Made by a program: the position numbers and the translations under genes
In this document: piece by piece, positions 2,754 to 64,000 of the stretch
How the letters are laid out: each line of letters opens with the position of its first letter
Position numbering within the stretch: position 1 is the first letter of the stretch
Notes under the pieces: generated by a model
Told to the model about the DNA's origin: nothing
The model's database searches: none
What the model saw: the letters and a program-made list of their open reading frames with translations, nothing else
Origin: Dehalococcoidia bacterium
GTDB taxonomy: Bacteria; Chloroflexota; Dehalococcoidia; Bin125
Reading direction: 5' to 3'
Assembly (NCBI GenBank): GCA_963555985.3
Contig: OY820591.1
Span: 1,664,001 to 1,728,000 of the forward strand
DNA length: 64,000 nt

Positions 2754-2832
2754 CTCGGGCTCCATCGTTGCGGCTGCTCGGCGTGCTCTGAGAGTATCAG
2801 CGACCGGAGCGGCTGACGTTAGACTCTCGCGC

Positions 2833-16451: not shown

Positions 16452-16528
16452 GGTGCGGCGACAGGCCTTCTCTACGATGTGATCTGCGCGTACTGCACTG
16501 AGCCTAGTCAGCGCTTGGAGTGGCGACA

Positions 16529-17920
16529 ATGTCGGATTTGTCAGCCGCGTTGCGGCAGTTGCCCAGCGTCGATCGGCTGCTCTCCGATCCCGCACTCTCG
16601 GAGCTCCGCGCCCGGCTCCCCCACGACCTCTGCGTAGCGGCCGTGCGTGACGCACTCGCGCAGGCCCGCGCCGAAATTCAGGCAGGACGGAATCCCGTCC
16701 CGACCGCCGAGACCCTTGCGAGACAAACGGCCGCAACCCTGGAGCGCCGCTACGGCCGCTCGCTCCGCTCAGTCGTGAATGCGACCGGCGTCGTCATCCA
16801 CACCAATCTCGGGCGCGCTCCGCTCTCGCAAGCCGCGACCCAAGCGATGACCCAGGCCGCGGCCGCTTACTCCAATCTCGAATTCGAACTCTCCACAGGC
16901 ACGCGCGGCTCGCGTGCGACTCATCTCGATTCACTGCTCACGGCCGCGACCGGCGCAGAAGCCGGCATCGCCGTCAACAACAACGCCGCCGCCCTCTACT
17001 TCGTGATGTCGGTGTTCGCGGCCGGCCGCGATCTGATCGTGAGCCGCGGTCAGGCGGTCGAGATCGGCGGCGGCTTCCGCATCCCCGACGTCATCCGTCA
17101 GAGCGGGGCGCGCCTGGTCGAAGTCGGCACGACCAACCGCACTCGAGCCCAGGACTACCGCGACGCCCTGAGCGACGAGACCGCTGCCCTCCTCCGCGTC
17201 CACTCCTCCAACTTCCGCATCATCGGCTTTGTCGAAGAGACCACCGTCGCCGAACTGCGCGCCGTAGCAGACGATCACGAGACCCAAACCGCATCGCCCC
17301 CGCTGCTCATCGACGACGTAGGCAGCGGCTGCCTGCTCGACACCCGAAACTACGGACTCGCCTACGAACCGCGCCCCCAAGACTCCGTCGCGGCCGGCGC
17401 GGACCTGGTGCTGTTCTCGGGCGACAAGCTGCTCGGCGGCCCCCAGGCAGGAATCATCGTCGGCCGCGAATCGGCAATCGCCCCGCTCCGCCGGCATCCC
17501 CTCATGCGAGCCTTGAGACCGGACAAGACCACGATCGCCGGACTCGCCGCAACCCTGGAACACTACTTGGCCGGCGAAGCCGAAACCCAAATCCCGATCT
17601 GGCAAATGATCGCCGCCGAGCCGGCAACTCTCCGCAAACGCGCGGAATCATGGCAGGCAACCCTCGGTGCGGGCCAAGTCTCCCAATCGGAATCCGCCAT
17701 CGGCGGCGGCTCACTCCCCGGCGAAACCAGGCCAACCTGGGTCTGGAGCATTCGCCGCGAACACCCCTCCAAATTCGCCGAAGCCCTGCGCCGCTCGAAT
17801 CCCCCCGTAATCGCCCGCGTAACCGACGACCAAATCCTCCTCGATCCCAGAACCGTCCTCCCCGGCCAAGACCAACTCGTAATCGCCGCCCTCCGAGCAG
17901 CGCTCGGAGAGGTCGCATGA
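16529..17920 (+). CDS. selA: L-seryl-tRNA(Sec) selenium transferase
   Basis: VNATGVVIHTNLGRAPL, VNNNAAA, VEIGGGFRIPD, EVGTTNRT, FSGDKLLGGPQAG. Confidence 0.97.
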   Translation: MSDLSAALRQLPSVDRLLSDPALSELRARLPHDLCVAAVRDALAQARAEIQAGRNPVPTAETLARQTAATLERRYGRSLRSVVNATGVVIHTNLGRAPLSQAATQAMTQAAAAYSNLEFELSTGTRGSRATHLDSLLTAATGAEAGIAVNNNAAALYFVMSVFAAGRDLIVSRGQAVEIGGGFRIPDVIRQSGARLVEVGTTNRTRAQDYRDALSDETAALLRVHSSNFRIIGFVEETTVAELRAVADDHETQTASPPLLIDDVGSGCLLDTRNYGLAYEPRPQDSVAAGADLVLFSGDKLLGGPQAGIIVGRESAIAPLRRHPLMRALRPDKTTIAGLAATLEHYLAGEAETQIPIWQMIAAEPATLRKRAESWQATLGAGQVSQSESAIGGGSLPGETRPTWVWSIRREHPSKFAEALRRSNPPVIARVTDDQILLDPRTVLPGQDQLVIAALRAALGEVA

Positions 17921-24610: not shown

Positions 24611-26032
24611 TTAGAGCTGATTTCTCATGCTGGCGATGCGGCCGCGGTCGACGGGCGGGAGGTGGAAGAACTCGATCCGGGTGGTTGGCGGTTCGAGTTG
24701 GGGTTGGGCCAGCTCGTGGCAGTAGCGGTCGGCGTCCAGGAGGTCGTCGTCGCGGTCCCGGGGTTGGGGGTTGGCGGCGCGGGGGTCTCGCCACTGGTAC
24801 TCCCTCATGCGGCGCGGGAACTGGACGAGCTCGGGGGTGTAAAAGGACGTCGGCGGGTCGGCGGCGAGCCGCTCTTGCACCAGGCCGATGCCCTGGTGGA
24901 CGGAGCCGGGGCCGCCCCGGCTGGGGCGGATGTCGCGCCCGCGGCGGTGAAGGTGGTCGATCCAGGCGGACTGCGTGCGGTCGGCGTTCCAACTGATTGA
25001 GCCGAAGCGCCGGCGGCACTGGAGCATCCACTGTTCGAGCCGCTGGGTGACGCCCGGGCCTCTGTCCTCGAACTCGGCCAGGCGGATCAAGACGCCCGGT
25101 CCGCAGACGGCATGGCGGGTGGTGAGGCCGGCGACGATGCCGGCGGTGTAGTGGGCCTGTTCGGTCTGGGCGCCGAAGTCGAGGCCGCCGAGGTAGCGCT
25201 CGAAGCTGGGCAGGCGCTTGTCCCAGAGATGCAGTTTGGGGTCGAACTTGGGGTAGACGAGGCCCTCGAAGGCGTCGAAGCGTCCTTCGATGAAGCGTTC
25301 GACCCAGTCGGGCGGGAGCAGGGCGCGTTGCTGCTCGGCGTAGTTCTCGGGTAGGTGGGGGTTGTCTTCGATCTTGGCGGGGATGAAGCGGGCTTGTCCG
25401 CCGGCGTGCTCGAGTTCAGCTTTGTTCAGTTCGCGTTGGACGAACCAGCGCTCGAACCAGCCCGGGTGCGGATTGGAGGCGGCCACGAACCAGCGTTGGG
25501 GCTGGGCCGGGTGACGCAGGCGAGTGAGCAGCATCTGGGCGGCTTCTTCGGCCACTTCGCCGGCTTCGTCTATGAGCACGGTTCCGTACTGCTGGGAGCC
25601 GAGGCCGGTCCAGTCGGAGAGATGGCGAAAGTGGATCGTGGAGGGTTCGCTCGAGTACTGGAGGCTGCTGACCGTGAGGGAATGGGTGGGTGAACTGCGG
25701 CGTTGGATGGTGAGGTCGGGGTCTGCGGTGCAGATGCGCAGGAACTCGCCCATGGTCGTGGTGTAGAGGTCTGTGAACGTGTCGCGTGCGAGCAGGATGT
25801 TGTTGCCCGGGAAGATCAAGGCCGCGTCCAGGGCGAGCTCGGCCAGGGCGCGGGTCTTGCCGCCGCCCATGGCGCCGCCGTAGCCGACCAGGGCGAGGCC
25901 GGGATTGGGCACGGTAGCGACTGCGCAACAGAGCTCGCGCTGTCTGTCCGTCGGAAAAAAACCGCGAGACTTGTGCAAGCGGTCGAACGCAACGACCGCC
26001 CGCTTTGAGCTGGGGGTATTACTGTGGCTCAT
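24611..26032 (-). CDS. Phage terminase large subunit (orphan)
   Basis: Walker A YGGAMGGGKT, Walker B VLIDEAGE, TRLR, ASNP, DNPHLP..Y, RNase H-like GLDFG and DDDLLDADRY. Confidence 0.88.
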   Translation of the reverse strand: MSHSNTPSSKRAVVAFDRLHKSRGFFPTDRQRELCCAVATVPNPGLALVGYGGAMGGGKTRALAELALDAALIFPGNNILLARDTFTDLYTTTMGEFLRICTADPDLTIQRRSSPTHSLTVSSLQYSSEPSTIHFRHLSDWTGLGSQQYGTVLIDEAGEVAEEAAQMLLTRLRHPAQPQRWFVAASNPHPGWFERWFVQRELNKAELEHAGGQARFIPAKIEDNPHLPENYAEQQRALLPPDWVERFIEGRFDAFEGLVYPKFDPKLHLWDKRLPSFERYLGGLDFGAQTEQAHYTAGIVAGLTTRHAVCGPGVLIRLAEFEDRGPGVTQRLEQWMLQCRRRFGSISWNADRTQSAWIDHLHRRGRDIRPSRGGPGSVHQGIGLVQERLAADPPTSFYTPELVQFPRRMREYQWRDPRAANPQPRDRDDDLLDADRYCHELAQPQLEPPTTRIEFFHLPPVDRGRIASMRNQL

Positions 26033-26626: not shown

Positions 26627-26702
26627 TGGTGGGCCGGGCTGGATTCGAACCAGCGACCGAGCGGTTATGAGCCGCCTGCTCTGACCCCTGAGCTACCGGC
26701 CC
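26627..26702 (-). tRNA. tRNA with CAU anticodon, most likely tRNA-Ile2 (lysidine)
   Basis: GGGCCGGTAGCTCAGGGGTCAGAGCAGGCGGCTCATAACCGCTCGGTCGCTGGTTCGAATCCAGCCCGGCCCACCA, 76 nt, encoded CCA; paired 1-72 and body resemble Ile2 rather than fMet. Confidence 0.93.
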
Positions 26703-33087: not shown

Positions 33088-34317
33088 ATGTCCCGCGTGA
33101 TGCTGCTGATCCCGACCGCCTCCTATCGAACGCCGGACTTCATGGCGGCAGCCTCGAAGATGGGCCTGGATGTGGTGGTCGCGTCGGACATCGATCAGCC
33201 GCTCGCGGACATGTATCCAGGACGCTGGTTGACGCTTCCGTATCACGATGTCGAGCAGGGCGCGCAGGTGGTGGCGCGGTATGCAGACCGCTTCCCGCTC
33301 GATGCGGTCGTGGCTGTCGACGATCCGGGCACGGTTCTGGCGGCGCGCGCCTCCACGGCACTCGAACTGGCCTGCAATCCACCGGCTGCGGTCTTGGGTA
33401 CGCGGGACAAGTCGATGCTTCGCGCCCGTCTCGATGCGGCGGGCGTGCTCTCCCCGCCGTGGCGCGTTGTGAGTTTCAGCGAGGACGCCGCGCAGATTGC
33501 CGCCGAGCTGGAGTATCCGCTCGTGGTCAAGCCGCTGGGACTGAACGGATCGCGTGGGGTAATGCGGGCAAACGACGCATCGTCGTTCGTGCGTGCAGTA
33601 GAGCGGTTGCGACGGCTGTTGGCTACCAAAGCGGCGGCCGAGGAGTGCGGCGAGCTCGCCGATCGCTACCTGATCGAGGGCTACATCCCCGGTACCGAGG
33701 TCGCGCTCGAAGGGTTGCTTCGAGACGGCGAACTGCACACGCTCGCGCTCTTCGACAAGCCGGATCCGCTTGAGGGGCCGTTCTTCGAGGAAACGATCTA
33801 CGTCACGCCCTCTCGACTGCCGGAAGAGCGCCAGCGCGAGGTCTCGGAAACGGCGCAAGCGGCGGCGGCGGCGTTGGGGTTGCGAGAAGGCCCGCTGCAC
33901 GCGGAGCTCCGCCTGAACGACGAGGGCGCCTGGCCCGTCGATGTCGCTGCCCGCACGATCGGCGGACTCTGCGCCCGCACGCTCCGCTTCGGAGCGGGGA
34001 TGTCGCTCGAAGAGATCGTCCTGCGGCACGCAGTCGGCGCGCCGTTGGAGACGCTCAATCGTGAAGGGCGCGCAGCCGGCGTGATGATGATGCCGATCGT
34101 CGGTCGGGGAAGGGTGCGCGAGATTCGAGGACTCGATCAGGCGGCGGCGGTGCCGCTGATTGAGAGCATCGAGATGGAAGCGCGAGTCGGCGACATGCTC
34201 GTGCCGCTGCCCGAGGGGGCGGACTATCCGGGCTTCATCTTCGCGCGCGGGGAAGAGCCAGAGTCGGTCGAGGCGGCCCTGCGGGAGGCATGGTCGCAGA
34301 TCGAGTTTGTGTTGTGA
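33088..34317 (+). CDS. ATP-grasp domain protein
   Basis: TRDKS.LR, YPLVVKP...GSRGV, LIEGYIPG.EV, HAELR, ARTIGG. Confidence 0.88.
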   Translation: MSRVMLLIPTASYRTPDFMAAASKMGLDVVVASDIDQPLADMYPGRWLTLPYHDVEQGAQVVARYADRFPLDAVVAVDDPGTVLAARASTALELACNPPAAVLGTRDKSMLRARLDAAGVLSPPWRVVSFSEDAAQIAAELEYPLVVKPLGLNGSRGVMRANDASSFVRAVERLRRLLATKAAAEECGELADRYLIEGYIPGTEVALEGLLRDGELHTLALFDKPDPLEGPFFEETIYVTPSRLPEERQREVSETAQAAAAALGLREGPLHAELRLNDEGAWPVDVAARTIGGLCARTLRFGAGMSLEEIVLRHAVGAPLETLNREGRAAGVMMMPIVGRGRVREIRGLDQAAAVPLIESIEMEARVGDMLVPLPEGADYPGFIFARGEEPESVEAALREAWSQIEFVL

Positions 34318-34996: not shown

Positions 34997-36373
34997 TTAG
35001 CTGCCGCCGTTGTGCTGAGGCGAGTTTCGAGCAATCAGGCTCGGTCGAAGTGGAGTTCGAGTCCCTCGTATTGGCGGCCGCGCGAAGTAGATCGGTAAGA
35101 CCGCGGCAAAGGTCAGGATCGCGGTCACGGTGAGCGGCCAGGTGTAGGAGCCGCTGAGGTCGTAGAGGAAGCCGATCATCCAGGGTCCGACCCCCGAGGA
35201 GAGTTGCGTGGCCATCGCGATCAGTCCGTAGACGGCACCGAAGCTGACGTAGCCGAAGACATCGGACGTCAGCAGCGACTGGAGCATGTAGATGTTGCCG
35301 ATGGTGAAGCCGAAGACGAGGATGGCGACGAATGTGGAGGCGGCGTGATCGATGTGGATGACCATCAGCGCGGCTGCGCCCTGGACGACGAACATGATCG
35401 CGGTGAGGACGCGGAGATCAACCCGATCGGCGAAGAAGCGGCCCACGATCAGGCGGGCGACGATGCTGCCGAAGGCGGTCACGGAGAGTGTGGTGGTCGC
35501 AGCGGTGAGCGAGCCGAGCCGCTCTTCGAGGAACGCGGTCTGATGGAGGATGAATCCGGTTTGGGCGAGTAAGACGATCAGAAACGAGAGCAGAATCGCC
35601 CAGAACGCAGGCGTGCGGGTCGCGGCGCGGATAGACCAAGTTCGGGTCTGGTTGGCGAGGGAACGCGCTGCGCTGCTCGCCAGCGGACGGGCGTAGCTGC
35701 CGAATCCATCCTGCGGCAGCCCCATCTGTTTCGGGTCCCAGACCAGCACGAAGGCGACGATGGGCAAACCAACGACGACGATCAGCGCGCCCATGATCGG
35801 CGTTGCGACATCGAGGCCGAAGCCCTCGATCAGGAAGCCGTTGAGCGGGGAGAGCACGACTCCGCCAAGCGAGACGCCGGTGGAGGAGACGGCCATCGCC
35901 CAGGCTCGACGGTGCAGGAACCAGCGCGCCAGGGTTGCGTTGACCGCAACCCCGGCGCTCATGCCGGTGCCGATCGCGAGTCCCAGGTAGACGAGGTAGA
36001 GTTGCCAGAGCTGATCGACCTGACCGATGCCGAGCGACGAGAGGCCGATCAGGATCAGGCCGGGTCCCATCCAGCGGCGCGCTCCGTAACGGTCGATCAA
36101 GGGTCCGACGACGGCTCCGGCGAGTCCGGAGGCGGCGAAGTAGAGGCCGGTGGCGAGCGAGACCTGGCCGTTGCTCCAGCCGTGAAGCTCTTGCAACGGC
36201 CCTAGGTAGACAGCGAGTCCGTAGTAGCCGACGCCGACGGAGACGAAGAGGAGCGTGCTGCACGCAAAGACGATCGCCCAGCCGTAGTAGATATGGCTCG
36301 GAAGCAGGCGGGCAGCGAGCGGCCGCTGGGCGCGCAGCTCGGGCGGCGGGGTAAGGCTGGACGCGGTGGGCAA
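34997..36373 (-). CDS. MFS transporter
   Basis: IYYGWAIV, GPLIDRYGAR motif A, about 12 TM segments. Confidence 0.9.
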   Translation of the reverse strand: MPTASSLTPPPELRAQRPLAARLLPSHIYYGWAIVFACSTLLFVSVGVGYYGLAVYLGPLQELHGWSNGQVSLATGLYFAASGLAGAVVGPLIDRYGARRWMGPGLILIGLSSLGIGQVDQLWQLYLVYLGLAIGTGMSAGVAVNATLARWFLHRRAWAMAVSSTGVSLGGVVLSPLNGFLIEGFGLDVATPIMGALIVVVGLPIVAFVLVWDPKQMGLPQDGFGSYARPLASSAARSLANQTRTWSIRAATRTPAFWAILLSFLIVLLAQTGFILHQTAFLEERLGSLTAATTTLSVTAFGSIVARLIVGRFFADRVDLRVLTAIMFVVQGAAALMVIHIDHAASTFVAILVFGFTIGNIYMLQSLLTSDVFGYVSFGAVYGLIAMATQLSSGVGPWMIGFLYDLSGSYTWPLTVTAILTFAAVLPIYFARPPIRGTRTPLRPSLIARNSPQHNGGS

Positions 36374-36511
36374 GCGGCGTCGCGATCCGGTTTGCGTTGA
36401 TTGGGCGGGAGTGGGCTGAGCATATCGGGGGTCTGTCTCGCCGCCGGCGGTCTGGGCGACGCCTAGACTGCGCAGTGCCCGCAGACGAACTCAGAGAGAT
36501 GGGTGCGCGTC

Positions 36512-37639
36512 ATGGCCGAACGACAGACGGGTTGGGTGTTTCACGAGGCGTACATGTGGCACGACACCGGCCGCACGCGGGCGTTCGATCCCGTCTTGCG
36601 CAAGTGGATGCAAGCGTGGGAGCACTGGGAGAATCCCGACACCAAGCGGCGATTGCAGAATCTGCTGGACTTCAGCGAGTTCTCGGAGGAGCTCGTCCAG
36701 CTCAAGCCGCGTCCTGCGAACCTGGAGCAGATCCTGCGGTTCCATACACCGGAGTACGTCGACCGCGTGCGCGAGCTGAGCGAGGCCGAAGGCGGCGACG
36801 CCGGCGAGGGCGCGCATTTCTCGGCGGGCGGGTATGAGATTGCGCTACTGGCCGTTGGGGGGACGATTGCGGCGATCAACGCGGTGCTCGACGGGACGGT
36901 CGACAACGCCTACGCGCTCACGCGGCCGCCCGGCCATCACGCGGAGCGGGATCGGGGGCGGGGATTCTGCATCTTCGGCAACGCTGCGATCGGGGCGATG
37001 CACGCGCTGGCAGACCGCGGACTCGAGCGGATCGCGACGCTCGATTGGGATGTGCATCACGGGAACGGCACCGAGCAGGCTTTCTACGACCGCAACGACG
37101 GACTGACGATTTCAATCCACCAAGATCATCTCTACCCGCGCGGACGCGGGTTCATGGCCGACAACGGCGAGGGCGCGGGCGAGGGTTACAACATCAATAT
37201 CCCCTTGCCGCCCGGCTCGGGGCACGGCGCGTATGTCGCGGCTGTGGAGCAGGTCGTAGTTCCGGCTCTGCGCGCCTATCGACCGGACTTGATCATCGTG
37301 CCGTCGGGATTCGACGGGGGCATGTACGACCCGCTGGGCCGGATGATGGCCTACTCGGAGACGTTCCGCGAGATGACGCGCCTGCTGCTGGAGGCGGCGG
37401 ACGAGCTGTGCGGCGGGCGTCTGGTGCTGACGCATGAGGGCGGGTATTCGCCGACATACGTACCGTTCTGCGGTCTGGCGGTGGTGGAGGAGCTGCGGGG
37501 CAAGCGATCGGTAGCGGGCGATCCGTTTGCGGAGACGGCTGCGGGGGTCGGCGGGCAGGATTTGCAGCCGCATCAGCAGGCGGTGCTTGATGATGCGAAG
37601 CAGCTGGTTGAGCGGTTGCGTGGGCTTGAGGGGGTCTAG
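36512..37639 (+). CDS. Class II histone deacetylase family amidohydrolase
   Basis: RPPGHHA, GFCIFGN, DWDVHHGNGT, GFDGG..DPLG, HEGGY. Confidence 0.94.
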   Translation: MAERQTGWVFHEAYMWHDTGRTRAFDPVLRKWMQAWEHWENPDTKRRLQNLLDFSEFSEELVQLKPRPANLEQILRFHTPEYVDRVRELSEAEGGDAGEGAHFSAGGYEIALLAVGGTIAAINAVLDGTVDNAYALTRPPGHHAERDRGRGFCIFGNAAIGAMHALADRGLERIATLDWDVHHGNGTEQAFYDRNDGLTISIHQDHLYPRGRGFMADNGEGAGEGYNINIPLPPGSGHGAYVAAVEQVVVPALRAYRPDLIIVPSGFDGGMYDPLGRMMAYSETFREMTRLLLEAADELCGGRLVLTHEGGYSPTYVPFCGLAVVEELRGKRSVAGDPFAETAAGVGGQDLQPHQQAVLDDAKQLVERLRGLEGV

Positions 37640-38994
37640 AACTCGACCAGAGTGAGGGGAGCCAACTGCTCCCCGGTTGGCTCCGCTCAACAGAACCAGT
37701 CTTCGGTCAGGCCTGGGCGGTGTAGGTGGGGAGCGGGGATGTCGGGCCAGGGAGTGGTTTCGAGCGCAGTACAGGTGGCTTGCTTGATTTCGGCAAACGA
37801 CGCGCCGCGCTCGGCTAGGGCGGCGATCTGCGATTGGAGGCGATCCAGCCGTTCGTCGGGGTGCCGCCAGATCCAGGTCAGACCGTCGGCGTCGTATTCG
37901 GTCAGGGCGTTGAGCTCGCGCATGGGTTGCACCAGGGGTGAGTCCGACGGCGCGAGCAGACGCAGGCCGAGCTGCACCGGAGGGGTCACGTCGATGAGTT
38001 GGCGGGTTTCCACGAACTTGAGCAGATCGAGGTAGTCGGCGGCGGTTGTCCAGGGCGTGAAGGGGAGCCAGGTGGGGCGGATGGCGATTCCGGCGGACGC
38101 GGTCAGTTCCAGGGCAATATCCAAATCGGCTGCCGTGTGTCCTTTGTCGAGCAGCGCGAGCAGCGAATCGTCTACCGACTCGAACGCGGAGGTGACGAAC
38201 GTGACGCCGAGTGCGGCCATTTCGGGCAGCAACGCGCGGTGTTCGAGCAGATGCTCAACCTTGATCGTCACGTCGTAGGTCATGTTCGGGTGCCGCTGCC
38301 TGCTCTCGCGCAGCAGGCCGACTGCGAGTTGGGGAGCGTTGAGGAAGTCGGGGTCTCCGAAGGTGATGTGTTCAGCGCCGCTCGCGGCCTGCTGCTCGAT
38401 GTCCGCGAGCACGGTCGCTGCGCCGTTGAGTCGGAGCCGACCCGCGTAGACGGGCGTAATTGGGCAGTGGGTGCATTGGTGCGCGCAGCCGCGCGTCGCT
38501 TCGACGTAGCCGGCCAGATGGGAGTTTCCGTTCGCATCGCGGTAGCGGGCGTACTGATCAAGCGAAGGCAGAGCGGATCTGTCGGGCAACGGGCGGTCGC
38601 GGCGATCGAAGATCGGCACGGGCGCGGGAGTCTCGCCGTTCGCCAACGCCACGAGCTGATAGTCGGTGTCGCCGGAGATTGTGCGTCCAAGATCGAGGTC
38701 GCCGAGAGCGCTGGCAATGAGACCGTAGAAGACGATCTTGTCGGACATGCCTCCCAGCGAACGCGCGACACGGATACCGAGGCGCGCGGCGGTGTGCATC
38801 GGAGTTGAGATGCCGACGAGGTCGGCCTCCTCCGCAAGCGTGCGCAGGTCCTCTGCCGAGATGGACTGGACATCGAGGTCGACGACGGTGACCTCGTGGC
38901 CTGCGGAGATCAGCGCCGCTGCGGGCGCGGCGATGCCGAGCGGTTGATGGCCTTGTTCGTAGGTGGAGATCAGGAGGACGGACACCACTGACAA
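37636..38994 (-). CDS. CUAEP-tail radical SAM selenoprotein (B12-binding-like N-terminus); UGA at 37687-37689 read as Sec
   Basis: RGCAHQCTHC motif; frame continues TGT TGA GCG GAG CCA = C-U-A-E-P-TGEQLAPLTLVEF to TAG at 37636-37638; hairpin right after UGA; selA present. Confidence 0.9.
37653..37689 (-). promoter_or_regulatory. Putative SECIS element
   Basis: UGA-GCGGAGCCAACC-GGGGAGC-AGUUG-GCUCCCC-UCA: 7-bp stem whose loop starts 19 nt after UGA; alternative 9-bp stem GGAGCCAAC/GUUGGCUCC. Confidence 0.75.
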
Positions 38995-39021: not shown

Positions 39022-39054
39022 CCCTCACCCTAACCCTCTCCCAGAGGGAGAGGG
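39022..39054 (+). repeat. REP-like palindrome, family 2
   Basis: CCCTCACCCTAACCCTCTCCCAGAGGGAGAGGG. Confidence 0.8.
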
Positions 39055-39063
39055 AACAAGAGA

Positions 39064-39672
39064 CTACTTCTTGGAGGGCTTGTAATAGGGGTTGTCGCCG
39101 GAGGCGTGGTCGGTCACGTCGACCAACTCTTCGATCTCGGGGAGCTGCTCCTTGACCGCGACCTCGACACCCTGCTTGAGGGTCACGTTGGCCATGCCGC
39201 AGCCCTGGCAGCCGCCGCCCATTTCGATGTAGGCGCGGTTGCCCTGGACTTCGAGCAACTGGACGTAGCCGCCATGCGCCGCGATCTGCGGGTTGACCTG
39301 TTCGTCGAAGATGCGCTGGATTTGGGCGGCGAGCGGGTCGCGCCAGACGGGATTGGGGTTGTCGAACTCCAGGCCGGAGACGTTGGGGCCTTTGAACTCG
39401 TAGTGGATGGAGGTGCCGCGCAGGTCTTCGATATGGTCGCCGTCGACGAAGAGGAGGAAATCGGGGAACTGCACCTGCGCGTCGCCGTGCGGCTCGATGC
39501 CTCGCTCAACGATGGTGAGCACATGCTCGAAGCCGTATGAGCTGCGGCCCACGATCTTGAGGCGCAGTCCGGCGACGGGTTCCGGATATCCGTTCAAGAC
39601 CTCGAGCAGCTTTTCCCGCGCGATTTCGGAGAACGTGATCTTGAGGTCTTCGGCGTGTACATCGGTCGTCAT
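39064..39672 (-). CDS. nfuA: Fe-S biogenesis protein NfuA
   Basis: Cys-less A-type carrier N-domain, NPN linker, VNPQIAAHGG, GGGCQGC, DVTDH. Confidence 0.9.
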   Translation of the reverse strand: MTTDVHAEDLKITFSEIAREKLLEVLNGYPEPVAGLRLKIVGRSSYGFEHVLTIVERGIEPHGDAQVQFPDFLLFVDGDHIEDLRGTSIHYEFKGPNVSGLEFDNPNPVWRDPLAAQIQRIFDEQVNPQIAAHGGYVQLLEVQGNRAYIEMGGGCQGCGMANVTLKQGVEVAVKEQLPEIEELVDVTDHASGDNPYYKPSKK

Positions 39673-41893: not shown

Positions 41894-43498
41894 ATGCGCA
41901 TCATCACCTCGTACGCCTGCACGCTTGACGTGGAGACCAGTGAGGAAGCTGTCTGGCGATTCAACCTCTACCGAGGCGTGATGGATGATTGGCTGCGCGA
42001 TCAGGGAATCGGCGATCCGAGGGTAGACTCGCCAGCCGACACCTTCATCCAGCTGACGCGACGGGATGTATCGCACGAAGGAGCGGAAATCAACGGGTTC
42101 CTGCTCAAGGAGCCCATCCTCGAATCGAGCCATATCCTGCACACGCGATTCGATCTCGCATTCAGCGACCGGTCGCTCGCATTGTTCCTCCAATTCAGCG
42201 TCGAGCGCCTGACGAGCCGGATCGCGCCAGTCAGTTACCAGGTCAGCTGTCCGCGAGCCTTGCAGACCATTCTCGACGCAGGCAACTGGAAGTCAGGTCA
42301 GGCCCGCGTGCGGCCCCACTGCCGCCGGGCTTTTGGAACGGAGGCAGGGCACCAACTCAAAAATGAGATCTGGGATCCAAACCGTGCGCTGCCAATAGTC
42401 TTGATAGCCAATCTCGAAGCACCTGAATGGGCACCCGAATTTAACCATCCAGAGCCTTATCCAGAAGCCGAATGGCAGGTGTTTGCAGACGCTCTCGAAG
42501 CAGACATCGGCGCAGTCGCCCAAATCGTCGAAGTTGACTCCTTAGCCTCCCAATCGCTGGACCCAGACATGGAAGGGATACTCCTGTGGGTAGTCTGGCC
42601 TTTCGGCAGCGAGGGGTTCTTGCCCAACCGGCATCCTGCGTGGGCGCCGTTCGACTATTACTACGAAGTCGAAGAGGGCGACTACAACTACGACATCCAC
42701 TATGGCGGCTCAGGAATGACTCACCGCGAGTGGACCACCCTCTTCCGTCGGCATGAGTTGATGGGGCTGAGACCAACGATACGGAACACGATTTACGAAC
42801 AGGCAGCCTTACAGCCCATTCCTGGGCTGATCGAGGATATTCGAAGAGCCTACGAACAGGCGGAACGCAAACGCCTTGCCGACACTGGTGATTGGGAACA
42901 GATGGCTCAAAGCTATGAGCGTGACGTGGCTCGCGAACGGGAACGAGCCGACTATGCGGAAGAAAGAAGAGACGAGCTCGAACGAAAGTTGGACGAAGAG
43001 AGGCGCAGGAACGGCGAATTGCAACGCACGCTCGACCGGCGGGGCGCGCGTTCGGCATCATCCGCCGCGACTCTCACTCCTACAGCAACCACCGAACCTG
43101 ATACGGTCGTTAGCGCTTTGCACCGTGCAACGCAAACGTGTCAACACTTGGTATTCGGCAAGGACGTTTGGAATTCTGCGAACGAGATCGAGTCCGAACC
43201 GGCGTTGGCAAAGAAGGTGCTCACGGCTCTCCAAGCGTTGAACGAAGGAACTGAATCGGCTGCGCAGGGAACGCTCGGCACCGCGCTAGCGAGCTGGATC
43301 TACGAACGGCACGCGATCGAATCCTCCTCCGAGCACGAGCCTCAGACATTCAAAGATGAACAGGGCAAAGCGCGGAAGTTCTCCATGCATCTCAAACTCA
43401 AAGAGGCTACCGCCGCCAACAAAGCAGCGCGGATCTACTATGACCACCTGTCCGACGAAGGGAAGACGCTTGTCGGATACATCGGTCCACATCTCTAG
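41894..43498 (+). CDS. Hypothetical protein with coiled coil and RelE-like C-terminal domain
   Basis: Lower GC; charged helical stretch; C-terminal HLKL...RIYY...LVGYIGPHL. Confidence 0.65.
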   Translation: MRIITSYACTLDVETSEEAVWRFNLYRGVMDDWLRDQGIGDPRVDSPADTFIQLTRRDVSHEGAEINGFLLKEPILESSHILHTRFDLAFSDRSLALFLQFSVERLTSRIAPVSYQVSCPRALQTILDAGNWKSGQARVRPHCRRAFGTEAGHQLKNEIWDPNRALPIVLIANLEAPEWAPEFNHPEPYPEAEWQVFADALEADIGAVAQIVEVDSLASQSLDPDMEGILLWVVWPFGSEGFLPNRHPAWAPFDYYYEVEEGDYNYDIHYGGSGMTHREWTTLFRRHELMGLRPTIRNTIYEQAALQPIPGLIEDIRRAYEQAERKRLADTGDWEQMAQSYERDVARERERADYAEERRDELERKLDEERRRNGELQRTLDRRGARSASSAATLTPTATTEPDTVVSALHRATQTCQHLVFGKDVWNSANEIESEPALAKKVLTALQALNEGTESAAQGTLGTALASWIYERHAIESSSEHEPQTFKDEQGKARKFSMHLKLKEATAANKAARIYYDHLSDEGKTLVGYIGPHL

Positions 43499-43605
43499 CC
43501 GTGAGCTCAATCCATTGCCCTGGACTGAGACCGGAGAACAGACATGGCGTTCAGGAAGACTCACGACGAACCGAGCCTCACGCTCAAGGCCGAAGAATGG
43601 CGCGT

Positions 43606-44059
43606 CCGTCATTCCAGGCTCAGCCTGGAATCTCGCCCCATGTCCCCGGCTTGCCCTCCGACGGACAACGAAGTACACTTGTGCTTATCCATCGCCAGAG
43701 CCGGATCAATCCCATGCTCGCGCACCCTGTCCCGCCCGCCAACGACCACTCCCGACACCAACGAACCAGGCCCGAACGACGCCGACCAGACCTGTACGGT
43801 ACCGAACAAAATCGACCAAATCCGAACGAAATCGAACACCCAAACTTTCCAGGACTAACCACCGCCTACCACCCGGATCTCACGATCTCCCGTAAAACAC
43901 TGGGTTTCCTCCACCAACTCGCTCGGAAAAAAATTCGGCCTCCACTCAGCGCGCGCCGAAACATCTCCCCTCCGAACAACGCCCTCCGACAAGCTCGACA
44001 CATCTGCGACGACAGCCTAGAACGCGGCGAGATACTCGCGACAAGCGCGAGTATGACGG
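43606..44059. repeat. Element bounded by inverted REP copies (43606-43634, 44029-44059) enclosing a promoter and 10-bp phased repeats
   Basis: CCGTCATTCCAGGCTCAGCCTGGAATCTC and GAGATACTCGCGACAAGCGCGAGTATGACGG; units CGAACAAAAT/CGACCAAATC/CGAACGAAAT/CGAACACCCA at 43803-43842. Confidence 0.75.
43651..43686 (+). promoter_or_regulatory. sigma70-type promoter overlapped by a LexA-like palindrome
   Basis: TTGCCC-N17-TACACT; AAGTAC-ACTT-GTGCTT at 43671-43686. Confidence 0.6.
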
Positions 44060-51496: not shown

Positions 51497-52318
51497 TCAG
51501 TCAGCGCGCGGTTGCTGGTAGATCCACCCGTTGACGGCGGTCATGCCTCCGTCGGCGACGATGCACTGTCCGGTGATGAAGGACGAGTCGTCGCAGGCGA
51601 GGAAGAGGGCGAGGCTGGCAATCTCTTCTGCCTCACCGCCGCGGCCCATTGGGGCCAGGTTCGCTTGACGTTCGCGCGTGGCTCGGAGATCTGCTTCGGT
51701 CTGCTCGGCATCACTGGGCAGTCCGAAGCGAGTGACGACCGCGCCCGGCACGATCACGTTGGCGCGAATGTTCAGGTGTGAGAGCTCGGCGGCAGCGGTG
51801 CGGGCGAGGGCATGGGCTCCGGCTTTGCCTGCGCAGTAGGCGGCAGCCCCGGGGACGCCGCTGATGCCGCCAATCGACGATGTGGAGATGATCGAACCGC
51901 CGCCGGCGCGCTCCATCAGGGGGATCGCGTACTTCATGCCCAGGAAGACGGCGCGCAGGTTGACGGCGATGAAGTCGTCGAAGATGTCGGCCGTCATATC
52001 GGCAATCGTGTGCGAGCCGCCGTCGCCTGGTCCTGCATTGTTGAACACGACGTGGAGTTCGCCCCACCGTTCTTCTGCGATATCGAAGGCGGCCTTGAGC
52101 TGTGATGCGTCTCGGACATCAGCGACAACGGGAACTGCCTGGTCGCCGATCTGGTCGGCAGCTTCCTGTAGGCGTTGCTGGTTGCGTCCAACCATGATGA
52201 CGTTGGCACCGTGTTCGGCGAAGAGTCGGGCTGACGCCATTCCCATGCCGGCGCTGGCTCCGACGATGATGGCGGTCTTGCCGTCGAGTTTGGGTTCGGC
52301 TGCGTGAGTGATTGGCAC
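51497..52318 (-). CDS. Short-chain dehydrogenase/reductase
   Basis: GASAGMG, NNAG, YCAGK. Confidence 0.93.
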   Translation of the reverse strand: MPITHAAEPKLDGKTAIIVGASAGMGMASARLFAEHGANVIMVGRNQQRLQEAADQIGDQAVPVVADVRDASQLKAAFDIAEERWGELHVVFNNAGPGDGGSHTIADMTADIFDDFIAVNLRAVFLGMKYAIPLMERAGGGSIISTSSIGGISGVPGAAAYCAGKAGAHALARTAAAELSHLNIRANVIVPGAVVTRFGLPSDAEQTEADLRATRERQANLAPMGRGGEAEEIASLALFLACDDSSFITGQCIVADGGMTAVNGWIYQQPRAD

Positions 52319-52348
52319 CTGTGGTGAAGTCCTCTCAGAACTGTGCGA

Positions 52349-53155
52349 TTAGAAGCCCTGGAAGTTCGGTTCGCGCTTCTCGGCGAAGGCTCGCGGGCCT
52401 TCCTTGGCGTCCTCGGTTGAGCGGGCGATGACCATGGCGTGGTCGGCCATTTCGAGCGATTCGTGCAGGCCGGTTTCGGCGGAGCGATAGGCGAGACGCT
52501 TGATCATCTGGACCGAGACAGCGGGCATCTTAGCGATCTGCTCAGCCAAGTCAAGCGTGGCGGGCATCAGCTCGTCGTGTTCGACGACTTTGCTGACGTA
52601 GCCCATCTCCAGTGCTTCCTGAGCGTTGAACAGCTTGCCCGTCCACATCAGTTCGAGCGCCTTGGACATGCCGACGATACGGGGCAGGTAGTAGGCGCCG
52701 CCGTCGCCGGGGATCAGCGCCATGCGCACGTAGGCCATGCCGAACTTGGCCCGGTCGGAGGCGATCCGCAGATCAGCCATCGAGGCCATGTCCATGCCCG
52801 CGCCGACAGCCGCGCCATTGACGGCGGCGATGTAGGGCTTCTCGCAGTTGAACAACGCTCGCGGAACCCGCTGGACGGAGTTGCGCAGCGAATTGCGGTT
52901 GGCGGCGGGCGCATTGGGGTCGCCGCCGAGCACGTCTGCGCCGGCGCGTTCGCGGCTGACATCTGCGCCGGAGCAGAAGCCGCGGCCCTCACCGGTGACG
53001 ATGATCACGCGGACATTCTGGTCGACCGAGGCGCGAGTGATCGACTCCTGCCAGGCGTCGAGCATCTCGTTGGAGAAGGCGTTGAGCTTCTCCGGGCGGT
53101 TGAGGGTGATCACGGCGATGTGATCCTGGACGTCGTAGAGCAGTTCGTCGGTCAT
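52349..53155 (-). CDS. Enoyl-CoA hydratase/isomerase family protein
   Basis: ITLNRPEKLNA, FCSGAD, AAVNGAAVGAG, AFAEKR.P.F. Confidence 0.93.
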   Translation of the reverse strand: MTDELLYDVQDHIAVITLNRPEKLNAFSNEMLDAWQESITRASVDQNVRVIIVTGEGRGFCSGADVSRERAGADVLGGDPNAPAANRNSLRNSVQRVPRALFNCEKPYIAAVNGAAVGAGMDMASMADLRIASDRAKFGMAYVRMALIPGDGGAYYLPRIVGMSKALELMWTGKLFNAQEALEMGYVSKVVEHDELMPATLDLAEQIAKMPAVSVQMIKRLAYRSAETGLHESLEMADHAMVIARSTEDAKEGPRAFAEKREPNFQGF

Positions 53156-53193
53156 GGTTCTTCTCCTGTTGAGCGGTCTGAGCTGATGGCGAC

Positions 53194-53985
53194 CTAGTTC
53201 ATCCGCATCCCGCCGTCGACGTTGAGCGACTGGCCGGTGATGTTCTTGGCATCATCGGAGGCGAAGAAGACGGCGGCCTTGCCGATGTCCTCGGGCGTCT
53301 GCTCGCGCGCGAGCGGCATGTTGGCGGCGATCACCGCTTCGAAGCGCTCGCGCCGGTCGACGACTTCCTCGGTGTGGTCGCCGGCGAACATGCCTTCGAT
53401 CTGACGCCAGAGATCGGTCCAGAGCAGGCCAGGGCAGATCGCGTTGACGTTGATGTTGAAGCGTCCGAGCTCGGCGGCCTGGGATTGGGTAATGCTGATC
53501 GCGCCGGCTTTGGAAGCCGAGTATGAGGCCATGCCGCCGCCGAGACGACCGGCAATCGAGGCAATGTTGACGATCTTGCCGCCGCCCTGCTCTCGGAAAT
53601 GCGGAGCGACAGCCGACGTGACTTTCCAGATGCCCTTGAGGTTGACCTCGTAGCAGCGATCCCAGTCGGCCTCGGTTTCGTCGGCCCCGAAGTTGTCGGG
53701 CGGGACGCCGGCGTTGTTGACGAGGATGTCGATCCGGCCCATCTGATTGATTGCCTCAGCGACCTGCGAGGCGATCGAGTCTTCGCTGGTGACATCCATC
53801 TCCAACGCGATCGCAGTGACGTCGTGACCATCCTGCAACTCGCCGGCGGTGCGAACGGCCTCGTCGCTCAGGAGGTCGCAGATCACGACGTTGGCGCCCT
53901 CCCTGGCCAGTTCGGTGGCGATGCCTTTGCCGATCCCGCGCGCTGCGCCGGTGACCAGCGCGACTTTCCCGTTCAATCGTCCCAT
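53194..53985 (-). CDS. Short-chain dehydrogenase/reductase (paralog A)
   Basis: TGAARGIG, NNAG, YSASK. Confidence 0.94.
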   Translation of the reverse strand: MGRLNGKVALVTGAARGIGKGIATELAREGANVVICDLLSDEAVRTAGELQDGHDVTAIALEMDVTSEDSIASQVAEAINQMGRIDILVNNAGVPPDNFGADETEADWDRCYEVNLKGIWKVTSAVAPHFREQGGGKIVNIASIAGRLGGGMASYSASKAGAISITQSQAAELGRFNINVNAICPGLLWTDLWRQIEGMFAGDHTEEVVDRRERFEAVIAANMPLAREQTPEDIGKAAVFFASDDAKNITGQSLNVDGGMRMN

Positions 53986-54055
53986 GAATTGACTCCAGTT
54001 CTAGCTAGCGATCAGCCTAACGGCCGTCTGCGTACGCGAGTCAGCAGGAGCAGAA

Positions 54056-54082
54056 GTGGTCGGATTTGTTCGGTCCTGTTCG
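54056..54082 (-). repeat. Short 10-bp phased repeat array
   Basis: - strand CGAACAGGAC CGAACAAATC CGACCAC. Confidence 0.55.
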
Positions 54083-54091
54083 GGTTCCGGC

Positions 54092-54883
54092 TCAGTTCAT
54101 GCGGATGCCGCCGTCAACGTTCAGCGCCTGCCCGGTGATGTTCCTGGCGTCGTCGGAGACCAGGAACGCGACCGCCTTGCCGATATCTTCGGGCGTCTGT
54201 TCACGACCCAACGGACAGGCGGCGGCGAGCGCAGCCTCAAAGCGGGCGCGGCGGTCGACCACCTCGTCGGCGTCATCACCGACCAGCATCCCCTCGAGCT
54301 TGCGCCACATATCGGTCCAGAGCAAGCCGGGGCAGATCGCGTTGACGTTGATGTTGAAGCGGCCAAGCTGGGAGGCCTGCGATTGGGTGATGCTAATCGC
54401 GCCGGATTTGGACGCGGAATAGGCCGCGATATTGCCGCTGCCGCCGCGACCGGCGATCGAGGCGATGTTGACGATCTTGCCCCCTCCCTGTTCTTTGAGA
54501 TGAGGAACGAGCGCGCTGCTGACCTTCCAGATCGCCTTCAAGTTGACCTCGAAGCAGCGATCCCAGTCCGACTCGACCTCGTTCTGGCTGAGATGGTCGG
54601 GAGCGACACCGGCGTTGTTGACCAAGATCTGAATGTCGCCCAGTTCGGCGCGAGCGCGTTCCACAGCGGACTCGATCGAGTCCTCGCTGGTGACATCCAT
54701 CTCGACCGCCATCGCTCGGCGTCCCAGAGCTCGGATCTCGCCGGCCGTAGCTTCGGCGGTCTCGAACAACAAGTCGCCGATGATCACGTCTGCGCCTTCT
54801 TTGGCGAGTTCCAGTGCGATCCCGCGTCCAATGCCGCGCGCGCCGCCGGTGACGAGGGCGGTGCGATCATCGAGTCGGCCCAT
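54092..54883 (-). CDS. Short-chain dehydrogenase/reductase (paralog B)
   Basis: TGGARGIG, NNAG, YSASK; strongly similar to paralog A. Confidence 0.94.
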   Translation of the reverse strand: MGRLDDRTALVTGGARGIGRGIALELAKEGADVIIGDLLFETAEATAGEIRALGRRAMAVEMDVTSEDSIESAVERARAELGDIQILVNNAGVAPDHLSQNEVESDWDRCFEVNLKAIWKVSSALVPHLKEQGGGKIVNIASIAGRGGSGNIAAYSASKSGAISITQSQASQLGRFNINVNAICPGLLWTDMWRKLEGMLVGDDADEVVDRRARFEAALAAACPLGREQTPEDIGKAVAFLVSDDARNITGQALNVDGGIRMN

Positions 54884-54913
54884 CCGATCATCCCTGTCCA
54901 AGTCCAAGCGCGT

Positions 54914-59546: not shown

Positions 59547-59696
59547 CAATTTCCCGCCCACAACGGCAAATTCGCTCTATCCGCTCAGAAATTCCCTCAT
59601 ACCCCAGCCAAACCTGCGATCCCCGTGCTTCGTCCATCTGCACAGACCCTAGAATCCCAAGCCAAGCGTCCGTTGAGCGACAGCGAGGAAACGCAT

Positions 59697-60581
59697 ATGG
59701 CTGATTACGCGAACCTCCTCGTTGATGTTGACGGGCCGGTGGCCACGATCACGCTCAACCGGCCCGAAAAGCTGAATGCCCTCTCGGAGGCGCTGCGCGG
59801 CGATCTCGCGGCGGCGTTGCGCGAGTTGAATCCAGGCGACGCCGTGCGCGTAATTCGGATCAAAGGCGCGGGGCGGGCGTTCTGCGCCGGCTACGACATC
59901 ACGCCCAGCGACAACGATTTCCAGTTCATTCCCAGCCGACGCACGGGCGACCAGGCCTGGGAGCTGGGCGAGTCAATGGCGGCGATGAACCGCGAGCATC
60001 TGCGCGATTCCATCGAACGCTGGCTCTGGATCTGGTCCTACCGCAAACCGATCATCGCCCAAGTCCACGGCTGGTGTCTGGCCGGCGGCAACGACCTGGT
60101 CGGCACCTGCGACCTCATCTTCGCCGCCGAAACCGCTCGCTTCGGTCACCCCGCCGGCCGGGCGTTAGGCCAACCGCCCACCCTCGGCATGTGGCCCCTC
60201 AAGATCGGCCTGCTCAAGGCGAAGGAACTGCTCTTCAGCGGCGACACGATCGACGGCCTCGAAGCCGAGCGGATCGGCATGATCAACCGCGCCTATCCGC
60301 AAGCAGACCTCGATCGGGAAGCCATGGCCTACTGCCAGCGCATCGCCCAAGTGCCGATGGACGGCCTCACCGTCCACAAGCACTCCACCAACCGCTGGGC
60401 CGAGCTGATGGGCGTGCGCATGTCGGCGATCGAGGGAGCGGAATTCAACGCCATCTTCGCCGAAGCCCCCACCATCGCCGAATTCGGCAAGATCTCTCGC
60501 TCGAAAGGCCTCAAAGCAGCCCTGGAGTGGCGCGACAATCCCTTCGGCGATGGCCGCGGGGCGGTTCAGCGTTCGGAGTAG
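59697..60581 (+). CDS. Crotonase/enoyl-CoA hydratase family (paralog A)
   Basis: ITLNRPEKLNA, FCAGYD, KPIIAQVHGWCLAGG, FGHP. Confidence 0.92.
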   Translation: MADYANLLVDVDGPVATITLNRPEKLNALSEALRGDLAAALRELNPGDAVRVIRIKGAGRAFCAGYDITPSDNDFQFIPSRRTGDQAWELGESMAAMNREHLRDSIERWLWIWSYRKPIIAQVHGWCLAGGNDLVGTCDLIFAAETARFGHPAGRALGQPPTLGMWPLKIGLLKAKELLFSGDTIDGLEAERIGMINRAYPQADLDREAMAYCQRIAQVPMDGLTVHKHSTNRWAELMGVRMSAIEGAEFNAIFAEAPTIAEFGKISRSKGLKAALEWRDNPFGDGRGAVQRSE

Positions 60582-60595
60582 CGATATCGGATCTC

Positions 60596-60729
60596 GTCAT
60601 GCCCGCGAAGGGAGACCTTTGCGTAAATCAAAGATCGTCATACCCGCGCCTGTCGCGGGTATCTCACCATGATCTGCACCGTCGTCGCGAACACGGCGAG
60701 ATTGCCGCGGCGGAGCGCGGCAATGACGG
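60596..60729. repeat. REP-like inverted doublet plus partial copy
   Basis: CGTCATACCCGCGCCTGTCGCGGGTATCTC 60636-60665; GAGATTGCCGCGGCGGAGCGCGGCAATGACGG 60698-60729. Confidence 0.85.
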
Positions 60730-60779
60730 AAGCAGGCTGCCCAGTACCATTCGATCGATTCCCATTGAAGGAGCGCGGC

Positions 60780-63351: not shown

Positions 63352-64000
63352 CTAGTTGAGCACGCCGCTGACCAGATGCTCAATGTACTCCTCGTCAGAC
63401 ATGCCGACGATGTCCTTGTAGACGTACTCGTTGTCTTCGCCCAGCAGCGGCGCGGCCTTGTGCAGATTGGCCGGCGTCTCGGACAGGCGGAAGGAGGGAC
63501 CGTCGTAGGCGCGATGTCCCATCGTGGGGTGATCGAGCATCCAGAAGTGGCCGCGATGGTCGAGCTGTGGGTCGTTGCGGAGATCTTCTGGCGTCTGCAC
63601 GACTCCAGCGGGAATGCCCACTTGCTGGAGCGTTCGCATCAGCGCTTCCGCGGGCTGAGCGCGAGTCCACTGCCCGATCAACGCATCGAGTTCGTCTTGG
63701 CGCTTCAGCCGTTCAACAGCCGTGGCAAAGCGTGGATCATCCGCCCATTCGGGATGTCCGGCGATCTGCGCGAGGCTGCGCCATTCATCCTCGGAAGTAC
63801 AGACGATCGCGATCCAACGATCATCGTCATTCTCACCGCGTGCGGCGCACTGATAGGTGCCGTGCGGCGCGTGATCGAGGTGGCGCGTGCCGAGGGCATC
63901 CTGTTCGCGGCCGTTGACGGTGTAGTCGAGGACCATTGACTCGGTCGCGTGGATTGCGGCCTCCAGTTGGCCGAAGTCGATGTTCTGGCCTTCGCCAGTG
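63352..64000 (-). CDS. CoA-transferase family III, 5'-truncated by the window edge
   Basis: TGEGQNIDFGQLE, APHGTY.C, DPRF, DPQL.HRG, APLLGE. Confidence 0.88.
   Translation of the reverse strand, partial: TGEGQNIDFGQLEAAIHATESMVLDYTVNGREQDALGTRHLDHAPHGTYQCAARGENDDDRWIAIVCTSEDEWRSLAQIAGHPEWADDPRFATAVERLKRQDELDALIGQWTRAQPAEALMRTLQQVGIPAGVVQTPEDLRNDPQLDHRGHFWMLDHPTMGHRAYDGPSFRLSETPANLHKAAPLLGEDNEYVYKDIVGMSDEEYIEHLVSGVLN

Follow-up and report, generated by a model that had tools for sequence, protein, structure and literature searches.

A CUAEP-tail radical SAM selenoprotein gene in a Dehalococcoidia bacterium, its predicted SECIS element and its possible functional kinship with ArsL

Background

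The CUAEP/CCAEP-tail radical SAM (seleno)proteins, where SAM is S-adenosylmethionine and U is selenocysteine (Sec), form a family that is already curated in NCBIfam as NF040546, together with the alternation of Sec and Cys in its C-terminal motif Cys-(Sec/Cys)-Ala-Glu-Pro. Literature searches for the family gave only one item, the Haft preprint (10.1101/2022.07.06.499078). The passages of this preprint that touch on the family count it among the few selenoproteins that carry a CU motif, call it uncharacterised and describe its structure and function as poorly known; they also link CU motifs to heavy-atom binding and mention a CU motif in some HgcA proteins. In the same searches no published reaction was found for the family, and in the searched passages of two reviews of prokaryotic selenoproteomes (PMC13188914, PMC9312934) NF040546 does not appear. 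Here we describe a new member of this known but uncharacterised family. Its gene lies in a stretch of 64,000 nucleotides from a Dehalococcoidia bacterium of the Chloroflexota (contig OY820591.1, positions 1,664,001 to 1,728,000), which is referred to below as the window; all coordinates are positions within this 64-kb window, whose G+C content is 65%. A preliminary description of the window had suggested that a hidden selenoprotein is encoded here and that it belongs to a CUAEP/CCAEP-tail family with no assigned reaction. As to the existence of the family and the lack of an assigned reaction, the sources just cited agree with that description.

By sequence, the nearest characterised relative of the window enzyme is ArsL, which is one of the enzymes with a C-terminal RCCLKC tail. 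According to those portions of two reports that concern the enzyme (10.1101/2024.02.01.577332; 10.64898/2026.04.29.721666), ArsL cleaves SAM to methylthioadenosine (MTA) plus a 3-amino-3-carboxypropyl (ACP) species, and it makes the C-As bond in hydroxyarsinothricin. The same portions state that the C-terminal Cys motif of ArsL binds As(III) and that it is needed for product formation but not for the cleavage of SAM. We compare the window gene with both of these systems, its own family and ArsL.

The UGA codon and its counterparts in relatives

The open reading frame (ORF) under study is on the minus strand (38994..37687). It encodes 435 amino acids (aa) from a TTG start and ends with ...PGLTEDWFC followed by TGA (37689-37687). 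The same frame continues past this TGA as AEPTGEQLAPLTLVEF up to a TAG at 37638-37636. The full gene of the radical SAM selenoprotein therefore occupies 37636..38994 on the minus strand and has 452 codons from TTG 38994, including the Sec codon and a 16-codon tail, before the TAG stop. An alternative start, GTG at 38988, is found two codons downstream of the TTG and would give a product of 450 aa. This is the start used in database entry P0001 (433 aa, 100% identical), which ends before the UGA. The TAG of the extended frame overlaps by two bases the TAG (37637-37639) of a convergent ORF on the plus strand, which encodes a deacetylase; the two stops share the palindrome CTAG. The continuation of the frame beyond WFC-UGA, the overlap of the two stops and the length of 452 aa had all been given in the preliminary description, and they are confirmed here, with the qualification that the length becomes 450 aa from GTG 38988.

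Sixteen open codons in DNA of 65% G+C mean little by themselves, so the significance of the extension has to come from comparison with other sequences. In a search of protein databases 8000 candidates were scored, of which 7982 were relatives at E <= 0.001, and the best 120 clusters were inspected. As many as 111 of these clusters, the window's own P0001 among them, end at W[FY]C; eight have Cys at the next position and one is a fragment. Truncation by standard gene callers, which had been predicted for this gene, is thus the rule among the best protein clusters. The eight Cys-form clusters read W[FY]CCAEPTxxQ... and run 15-19 residues beyond. When the window product is aligned with these CCAEP homologues, as had been proposed earlier, its residues after the UGA match those of the Cys forms (AEPT-GE-QLAPL and AEPT-xx-QLAPL, respectively).

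Genomic sequences were scanned as well, with one genome per species. This gave at least 577 pattern matches and at least 558 confirmed relatives, of which the best 80 loci were kept. AEP belonged to the search pattern, while conservation beyond AEP is independent of the pattern. At the position of the Sec codon, 60 of the 80 loci have TGA, 19 have TGC or TGT, and one (L076) runs off its contig. The Cys/Sec exchange that had been ascribed to the family can therefore be seen directly. The TGA loci consist of 59 with C-TGA-(A/S)EP and one (L063) with C-TGA-TEP, and the Cys loci all have C-TG(C/T)-AEP. No intact locus ends at WFC without these residues: (A/S/T)EP follows the codon in frame in 79 of 79, mostly with TxxQ after it. 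In the Sec sequences (59 loci and the window) Thr is found at +4 in 48 of 60 and Gln at +7 in 57 of 60; in the Cys forms each of the two is found in 18 of 19.

In the window the UGA (37687..37689, minus strand; U436 of the product) directly follows the invariant Cys435 and is aligned with Cys codons of relatives. The conserved C-terminal tail in which it stands, P427-G-L-T-E-D-W-F-C-U-A-E-P-T-G-E-Q-L-A-P-L-T-L-V-E-F, is encoded at 37639..37716 on the minus strand, and P427, E431, W433 and C435 of this tail are invariant in 61 aligned sequences. Elsewhere in the window TGA is an ordinary stop, since it ends 23 of the 47 called genes; hence there is no general reassignment of TGA in this organism. 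A gene for L-seryl-tRNA(Sec) selenium transferase, selA, is located at 16520-17920 on the plus strand (TIGR00474, 531.4 bits; cutoff 267.9). It is 19.7 kb from the radical SAM gene, in accordance with the 20 kb mentioned earlier, and its presence is evidence that the organism makes Sec-tRNA. In the related loci, 33 of the 80 were scanned for tRNA-Sec and none was found.

A predicted SECIS element

The selenocysteine insertion sequence (SECIS) of E. coli fdhF is a short stem-loop that begins about 11 nucleotides (nt) after the UGA, and a G and a U in its apical loop contact SelB. In the window a hairpin of similar kind, GGGGAGC-AGUUG-GCUCCCC, is located at 37656..37674 on the minus strand, with a stem that begins 12 nt after the UGA. 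We predict that it is a signal of the SelB type. The hairpin (37674-37656) is contained in the minimum-free-energy fold of the window's 60-nt RNA.

The 48 nt starting from the UGA were aligned for 59 Sec loci and the window (L063 was left out) and compared with those of 18 Cys loci (L072 was too short and was dropped). The helix has seven pairs, formed by columns 16-22 with 28-34. In the Sec set 80.2% of its cells are paired, compared to 63.1% in column shuffles; there are 96 doubly changed (compensatory) cells compared to 42, and the covariation score is 0.495 compared to 0.206. These values were reached by none of 500 shuffles, and the register is the best among slides from -3 to +3. The Cys loci serve as a control: in the same columns 46.8% of cells are paired, compared to 46.5% in shuffles (255/500). 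The loop was counted in 60-nt segments from 58 Sec loci and the window, and from 18 Cys loci. In the Sec sequences it has five nucleotides, A-G-(U/G)-U-N, with G in 58 of 59 and U in all 59. The Gln codon is CAG in 58 of these 59 sequences, and the codon after it begins with U/G-U. The Cys loci are looser at both codons, with CAA for Gln in 6 of 18 and CUN as the next codon in 10 of 18.

The codons for T-x-x-Q-(L/F/V)-x-x of the tail make up the element, so that the RNA constrains which residues the tail may carry there. It resembles the fdhF-type SECIS in its stem of 6-7 bp, which starts 12 nt from the UGA, and in a loop of 5 nt where G and U are nearly invariant; spacing and loop also fit the models used in searches for bacterial SECIS elements. 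It differs in that its loop and stem are encoded by conserved tail codons and in that it has no Rfam match: at gathering thresholds Rfam matched no SECIS family in the 64-kb window and found only a tRNA.

The preliminary description had also pointed to a hairpin after the UGA, and an inverted repeat GAGCCAAC...GTTGGCTC is indeed present downstream of the TGA. As a candidate SECIS, this hairpin (GAGCCAAC/GUUGGCUC) was rejected, as it does not covary (66.4% paired, compared to 66.3% in shuffles; 258/500). It overlaps the covarying hairpin and the two are mutually exclusive. What was noticed is thus real in the window sequence, but the conserved element is the overlapping GGGGAGC-AGUUG-GCUCCCC.

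Given the conservation downstream of the codon, a hairpin that covaries in the Sec forms only and the presence of selA in the window, it is very probable that the UGA at 37689-37687 is decoded as Sec through a bacterial-type SECIS.

A further locus can be mentioned here. In Thermomicrobium roseum (NC_011961.1, 7938-9374) the frame past the UGA reads U-AEPLEDPSGP..., and the RefSeq entry stops at the UGA. A hairpin GGACCC-GUC-GGGUCC occurs there in the register of the family SECIS, and the neighbouring genes encode an MFS transporter (major facilitator superfamily), a large GNAT acetyltransferase and an aminotransferase dependent on pyridoxal phosphate. The Sec form may therefore exist in a cultured organism.

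Family membership, kinship and structure model

When U is scored as C, the top NCBIfam match of the product is NF040546, with 476.6 bits (E 7e-143). The match spans residues 6-445 and profile positions 1-467 of 468, and it leads the next family by 239 bits; the runner-up is the ArsL family NF040542 (237.9 bits). The features common to NF040546 are all found in the window enzyme or its relatives. They are the C-(U/C)-AEP tail, present as WFC-U-AEPT at residues 433-440, the CxxxCxxC core, the B12-binding-like N-terminal domain and the alternation of Sec and Cys. The CxxxCxxC site of the radical SAM [4Fe-4S] cluster (C170, C174, C177; 38464..38487, minus strand) is inside the Radical_SAM domain (residues 165-304; Pfam PF04055, 40.6 bits) and is invariant in two alignments. 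The B12-binding-like domain, which is of Rossmann type, covers residues 8-91 (38722..38973, minus strand; Pfam PF02310, 33.6 bits, cutoff 32.1). The Chloroflexota clade to which the window enzyme belongs is shorter than most members of the family, with 433 aa before Sec compared to a profile length of 468.

Outside its own family the window enzyme has 32% identity over 424 aa to the RCCLKC-tail protein of Bacillus cereus pAH820_272 (E 3e-69), in an alignment that starts with the first strand and stops shortly before the tail. A further 36 records hold more distant relatives, at about 32% identity. The resemblance to ArsL begins in the N-terminal domain and reaches the C-terminal region, and it is accompanied by a Cys-rich motif at the C-terminus and by a homologous ATP-grasp gene in the cluster. 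In contrast to ArsL, there is a linker of roughly 35-60 residues before the CUAEP tail, and the window enzyme fails the ArsL model NF040542, with 237.9 bits against a cutoff of 450 bits; its tail is CUAEP, not RCCLKC.

An AlphaFold2 model was built from an alignment of 61 sequences. Its mean predicted local distance difference test score (pLDDT) is 94.6 and its predicted template-modelling score (pTM) is 0.92; in the tail the pLDDT is 86 for residues 421-430, 77 for 431-440 and 69 for 441-450. Invariant in the 61 sequences are C170, C174 and C177 with H172 and H176, then M66-H67-T68-A69 and D214-x-D216-F217-x-N219, as well as K245, H248, E272, K284, H286, W315 and Q341, in addition to the tail residues already mentioned. 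By sequence the enzyme has no match in the PDB at E <= 0.001. Foldseek against the PDB places AprD4 first (E 7e-17, template-modelling (TM) score 0.67-0.69), followed by TsrM, OxsB, MgmA, MiaB, RimO, CysS and TokK. In the model, the two-domain architecture is that of radical SAM enzymes whose N-terminal domain has a B12-binding fold. The overall two-domain fold is shared with AprD4, TsrM, OxsB and MgmA (Foldseek E 1e-15 to 7e-17, TM 0.57-0.69), but identity to these enzymes is only 14-18% and they are without a Cys-Sec tail.

Gene neighbourhood

For 78 loci and the window, all ORFs of 70 aa or more that lie no further than 6 kb from the gene were clustered; L063 and L076 were left out, as their site was not placed by the pattern. 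The most widespread neighbour is a gene for an ATP-grasp protein of about 410 aa, which is found in 33 of the 79 loci and in many phyla. As read from the coordinates, it is directly adjacent to the radical SAM gene in about 22 loci and one gene away in about six, and in the window, as in the four loci most closely related to it (L001-L004), the distance is 2.7-3.8 kb. The copy in the window (33088..34317, plus strand) is of the L-amino-acid-ligase type (Pfam ATP-grasp_4, LAL_C2 and ATPgrasp_N), and among solved structures it is closest to the L-amino acid ligase BL00235 (3vot, E 1.5e-42, full length) and to BacD.

The ATP-grasp genes of two RCCLKC clusters, those of B. cereus pAH820_272 and Alicyclobacillus pAACI01, are homologous to that of the window (E 2e-17 and 1e-18, respectively). 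We found no published discussion of an ATP-grasp step in arsinothricin-type clusters. The B. cereus cluster also has genes for ArsR, MIP, GNAT, ACR3 and ArsC, and the Alicyclobacillus cluster has MFS, ArsM, ArsL-type and ArsN1 genes. Each of the two carries genes for a carboxymuconolactone decarboxylase (AhpD-like), an ATP-grasp protein and a GTP-binding protein (COG0523-like).

Directly upstream of the radical SAM gene is a gene for an NfuA-like Fe-S carrier (39064..39672, minus strand), which matches Pfam NifU and, weakly, Fe-S_biosyn; its TIGR03341 score of 103.6 bits is below the cutoff. By direct BLAST, Nfu homologues are found within 6 kb of the radical SAM gene in 25 of the 78 other loci. 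A higher count, 30 of 79 by one-step transitive family, was discarded, because ORFs in alternative frames of the ATP-grasp gene, overlapping it, had inflated the number. Iron_traffic (YggX) is a neighbour in 10 of the 79 loci and DUF169 in 12. The interval of about 70 nt between the stop of the nfu-like gene (39066-39064) and the start of the radical SAM gene holds a perfect 9-bp inverted repeat at 39030-39050 on the minus strand, CCCTCTCCC-tct-GGGAGAGGG, with no T-run after it. Standing between two co-oriented genes, this may be a processing site, an attenuator or a repeat element.

The convergent gene (36503..37639, plus strand) encodes an amidohydrolase of the histone deacetylase family (Pfam Hist_deacetyl, 287 bits), and between it and the ATP-grasp gene there is a gene for an MFS transporter (34997..36373, minus strand; Pfam MFS_1). 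These two genes are kept beside the radical SAM gene only in the four closest loci, L001-L004. It is possible that the deacetylase is a member of the cluster and that the MFS transporter is an exporter. The idea that an MFS exporter is shared by homology with other clusters was rejected. The window protein compared with the MFS proteins of T. roseum and Alicyclobacillus gives E values of 0.74 and 4.3, that is, they are not detectably homologous, and a shared exporter is therefore an idea about functional class only. In five Acidimicrobiia loci (L018, L021, L029, L041 and L047) a gene for the ATP-binding protein of an ABC (ATP-binding cassette) transporter is located about 90-1000 nt downstream, instead of the ATP-grasp gene; it is a lineage-specific alternative neighbour in these loci.

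Possible function and alternatives

What might such an enzyme do? We tentatively suggest ArsL-like chemistry, in which an ACP group would be transferred from SAM onto a soft atom held by the Cys-Sec tail. The [4Fe-4S] cluster would break the C-gamma-S bond of SAM, whose 3-amino-3-carboxypropyl group would go onto a metalloid or chalcogen (As, Se, S or Te, for example). The adjacent Cys and Sec of the mobile tail would hold the substrate atom in the way in which the RCCLKC tail of ArsL holds As(III). The product would be a 2-amino-4-X-butanoate, which the linked L-amino-acid ligase of the ATP-grasp type would condense with another amino acid. The Nfu- and YggX-type neighbours would supply or repair the Fe-S cluster; work on LipA and MiaB ascribes to NfuA a part in the re-loading of radical SAM clusters. 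The vicinal Cys-Cys and Cys-Sec tails of MerA and thioredoxin reductase also place adjacent soft ligands on a C-terminal extension, but their folds are unrelated and the likeness is an analogy only. Taken together, membership in the CUAEP/CCAEP family, decoding of the UGA as Sec and the ArsL-like proposal are probably the best explanation of the locus as a whole, while the ArsL-like part, taken alone, is a good deal less secure.

A number of observations count against this explanation. The NF040546 score of 476.6 bits is below the curated cutoff of 500 bits, so that under the NCBI rule the protein is not automatically named a member. As to Sec, neither ARAGORN nor Rfam found a tRNA-Sec gene (selC) in the 64-kb window, and there is no selB or selD among the 48 ORFs scanned in it. 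As to the chemistry, the CUAEP tail offers two soft ligands compared to three Cys in RCCLKC, and arsM, arsR, ACR3 and arsC are missing both from the surroundings of the gene in the window and from the neighbour clusters that recur. In 46 of the 79 loci there is no ATP-grasp gene within 6 kb, and that of the window is 3.3 kb from the radical SAM gene and on the opposite strand. Finally, His16 and MHT (residues 66-68) are conserved in the CUAEP family and absent from the one RCCLKC sequence that was aligned. Because of this, the N-terminal domain of the CUAEP proteins may have a role that the domain of ArsL is without.

One alternative is that the UGA is a true stop, the protein ends with ...WFC and the downstream frame is untranslated. 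It agrees with the annotation of 111 of the best 120 clusters, and likewise of the RefSeq protein of T. roseum that is named CUAEP/CCAEP-tail, and with the failure to see selB, selC and selD in the 64-kb window. However, it would leave unexplained why (A/S/T)EP-TxxQ is conserved after TGA in 60 loci and why the same residues follow Cys in 19, as well as the hairpin that covaries in TGA forms only and selA in the window, and we consider it extremely improbable. With Sec accepted, the pair could serve another purpose. It could be a redox or H-atom-donor centre in an enzyme that carries out ordinary 5'-deoxyadenosyl chemistry on an organic substrate, either as a mobile selenenylsulfide that shuttles electrons into the active site or as a selenol that quenches a substrate radical. 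There are parallels in the GCUG tail of thioredoxin reductase and in the Cys H-donors of radical SAM epimerases and spore photoproduct lyase. The fold is like that of the class-B-like 5'-deoxyadenosyl enzymes AprD4 (TM 0.67-0.69) and OxsB, and the presence of only two chalcogen ligands in the tail would also suit such a role. On the other hand, the closest characterised full-length homologue is ArsL, whose tail binds substrate, and an amino-acid product is suggested by the ATP-grasp partner common to both. The link made in the Haft preprint between CU motifs and heavy-atom binding (10.1101/2022.07.06.499078, in the passages on these motifs) also speaks against a redox role, and we regard that role as rather unlikely.

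The B12-binding domain, which scores above the Pfam gathering threshold, raises the question of whether the enzyme depends on cobalamin. Methylcobalamin could donate a methyl group to a metal or metalloid held by Cys-Sec, or the tail itself could ligate cobalt, in a manner like that of HgcA. Some HgcA proteins are indeed reported to have a CU motif, in the relevant passages of the Haft preprint (10.1101/2022.07.06.499078). TsrM, OxsB, MgmA, CysS and TokK are among the structural neighbours, and His16 with M66-H67-T68 is conserved in the family and replaced in the RCCLKC enzyme, both of which would fit with cobalamin. Against this, AprD4 has the same type of B12-binding domain and is a cobalamin-independent enzyme, and no cobalamin genes recur among the neighbours. 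Dependence on cobalamin is therefore improbable in our opinion.

Other features of the window

Some observations concern other parts of the window. Positions 42000-44000 have a G+C content of 57-59%, compared to 65% for the window, and hold most of a 532-aa ORF (41900-43495, plus strand) without a Pfam match; this stretch may be a foreign island. The ORF at 24611-26032 (minus strand) has a weak match to the large subunit of PBSX-type phage terminase (44.9 bits, below the cutoff). It adjoins the only tRNA gene of the window, tRNA-Met at 26627-26702 (minus strand), and may be what remains of a prophage at a tRNA site. Genes of acyl-CoA metabolism are plentiful in the window. There are tandem paralogues of the crotonase family at 59625-60581 and 60669-61664, and several genes for CaiB-type CoA-transferases at 2608-5183 and 63352-63936. 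Three consecutive genes of the short-chain dehydrogenase/reductase family occupy 51497-54907.

Implications

For the way in which gene callers truncate selenoproteins this gene is a textbook example, and the truncated entries are without the residue that is probably at the business end of the protein. The family is large and phylogenetically wide, with relatives in at least 558 species-level genomes. Beyond what was already curated, this analysis adds a SECIS supported by covariation and by the control of the Cys forms, the partnership with a ligase and with Fe-S carriers, the finding that the ligase is common to ArsL-type clusters, and a fold model of high confidence. The SECIS itself illustrates clearly how residues of a protein tail are dictated by an RNA element. 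Kinship with ArsL over the full length, the shared L-amino-acid-ligase partner and the recurrent Fe-S carriers make the question of function a testable one.

A bolder suggestion can also be made, which at present we consider more doubtful than the ArsL-like transfer itself. CUAEP proteins would be a second kind of ArsL-type enzyme, with a Cys-Sec clamp, and would open a widespread pathway, so far unrecognised, whose product is an amino acid or dipeptide of an unusual kind. This pathway would run from the radical SAM enzyme through the ATP-grasp protein of the L-amino-acid-ligase type to export, with dedicated Fe-S support by Nfu and YggX. If correct, it would be present in Chloroflexota, Acidobacteriota, Gemmatimonadota, Poribacteria, Acidimicrobiia and other phyla that are largely uncultured, and it would be the first example of a radical SAM enzyme in which Sec serves as a ligand for the substrate.

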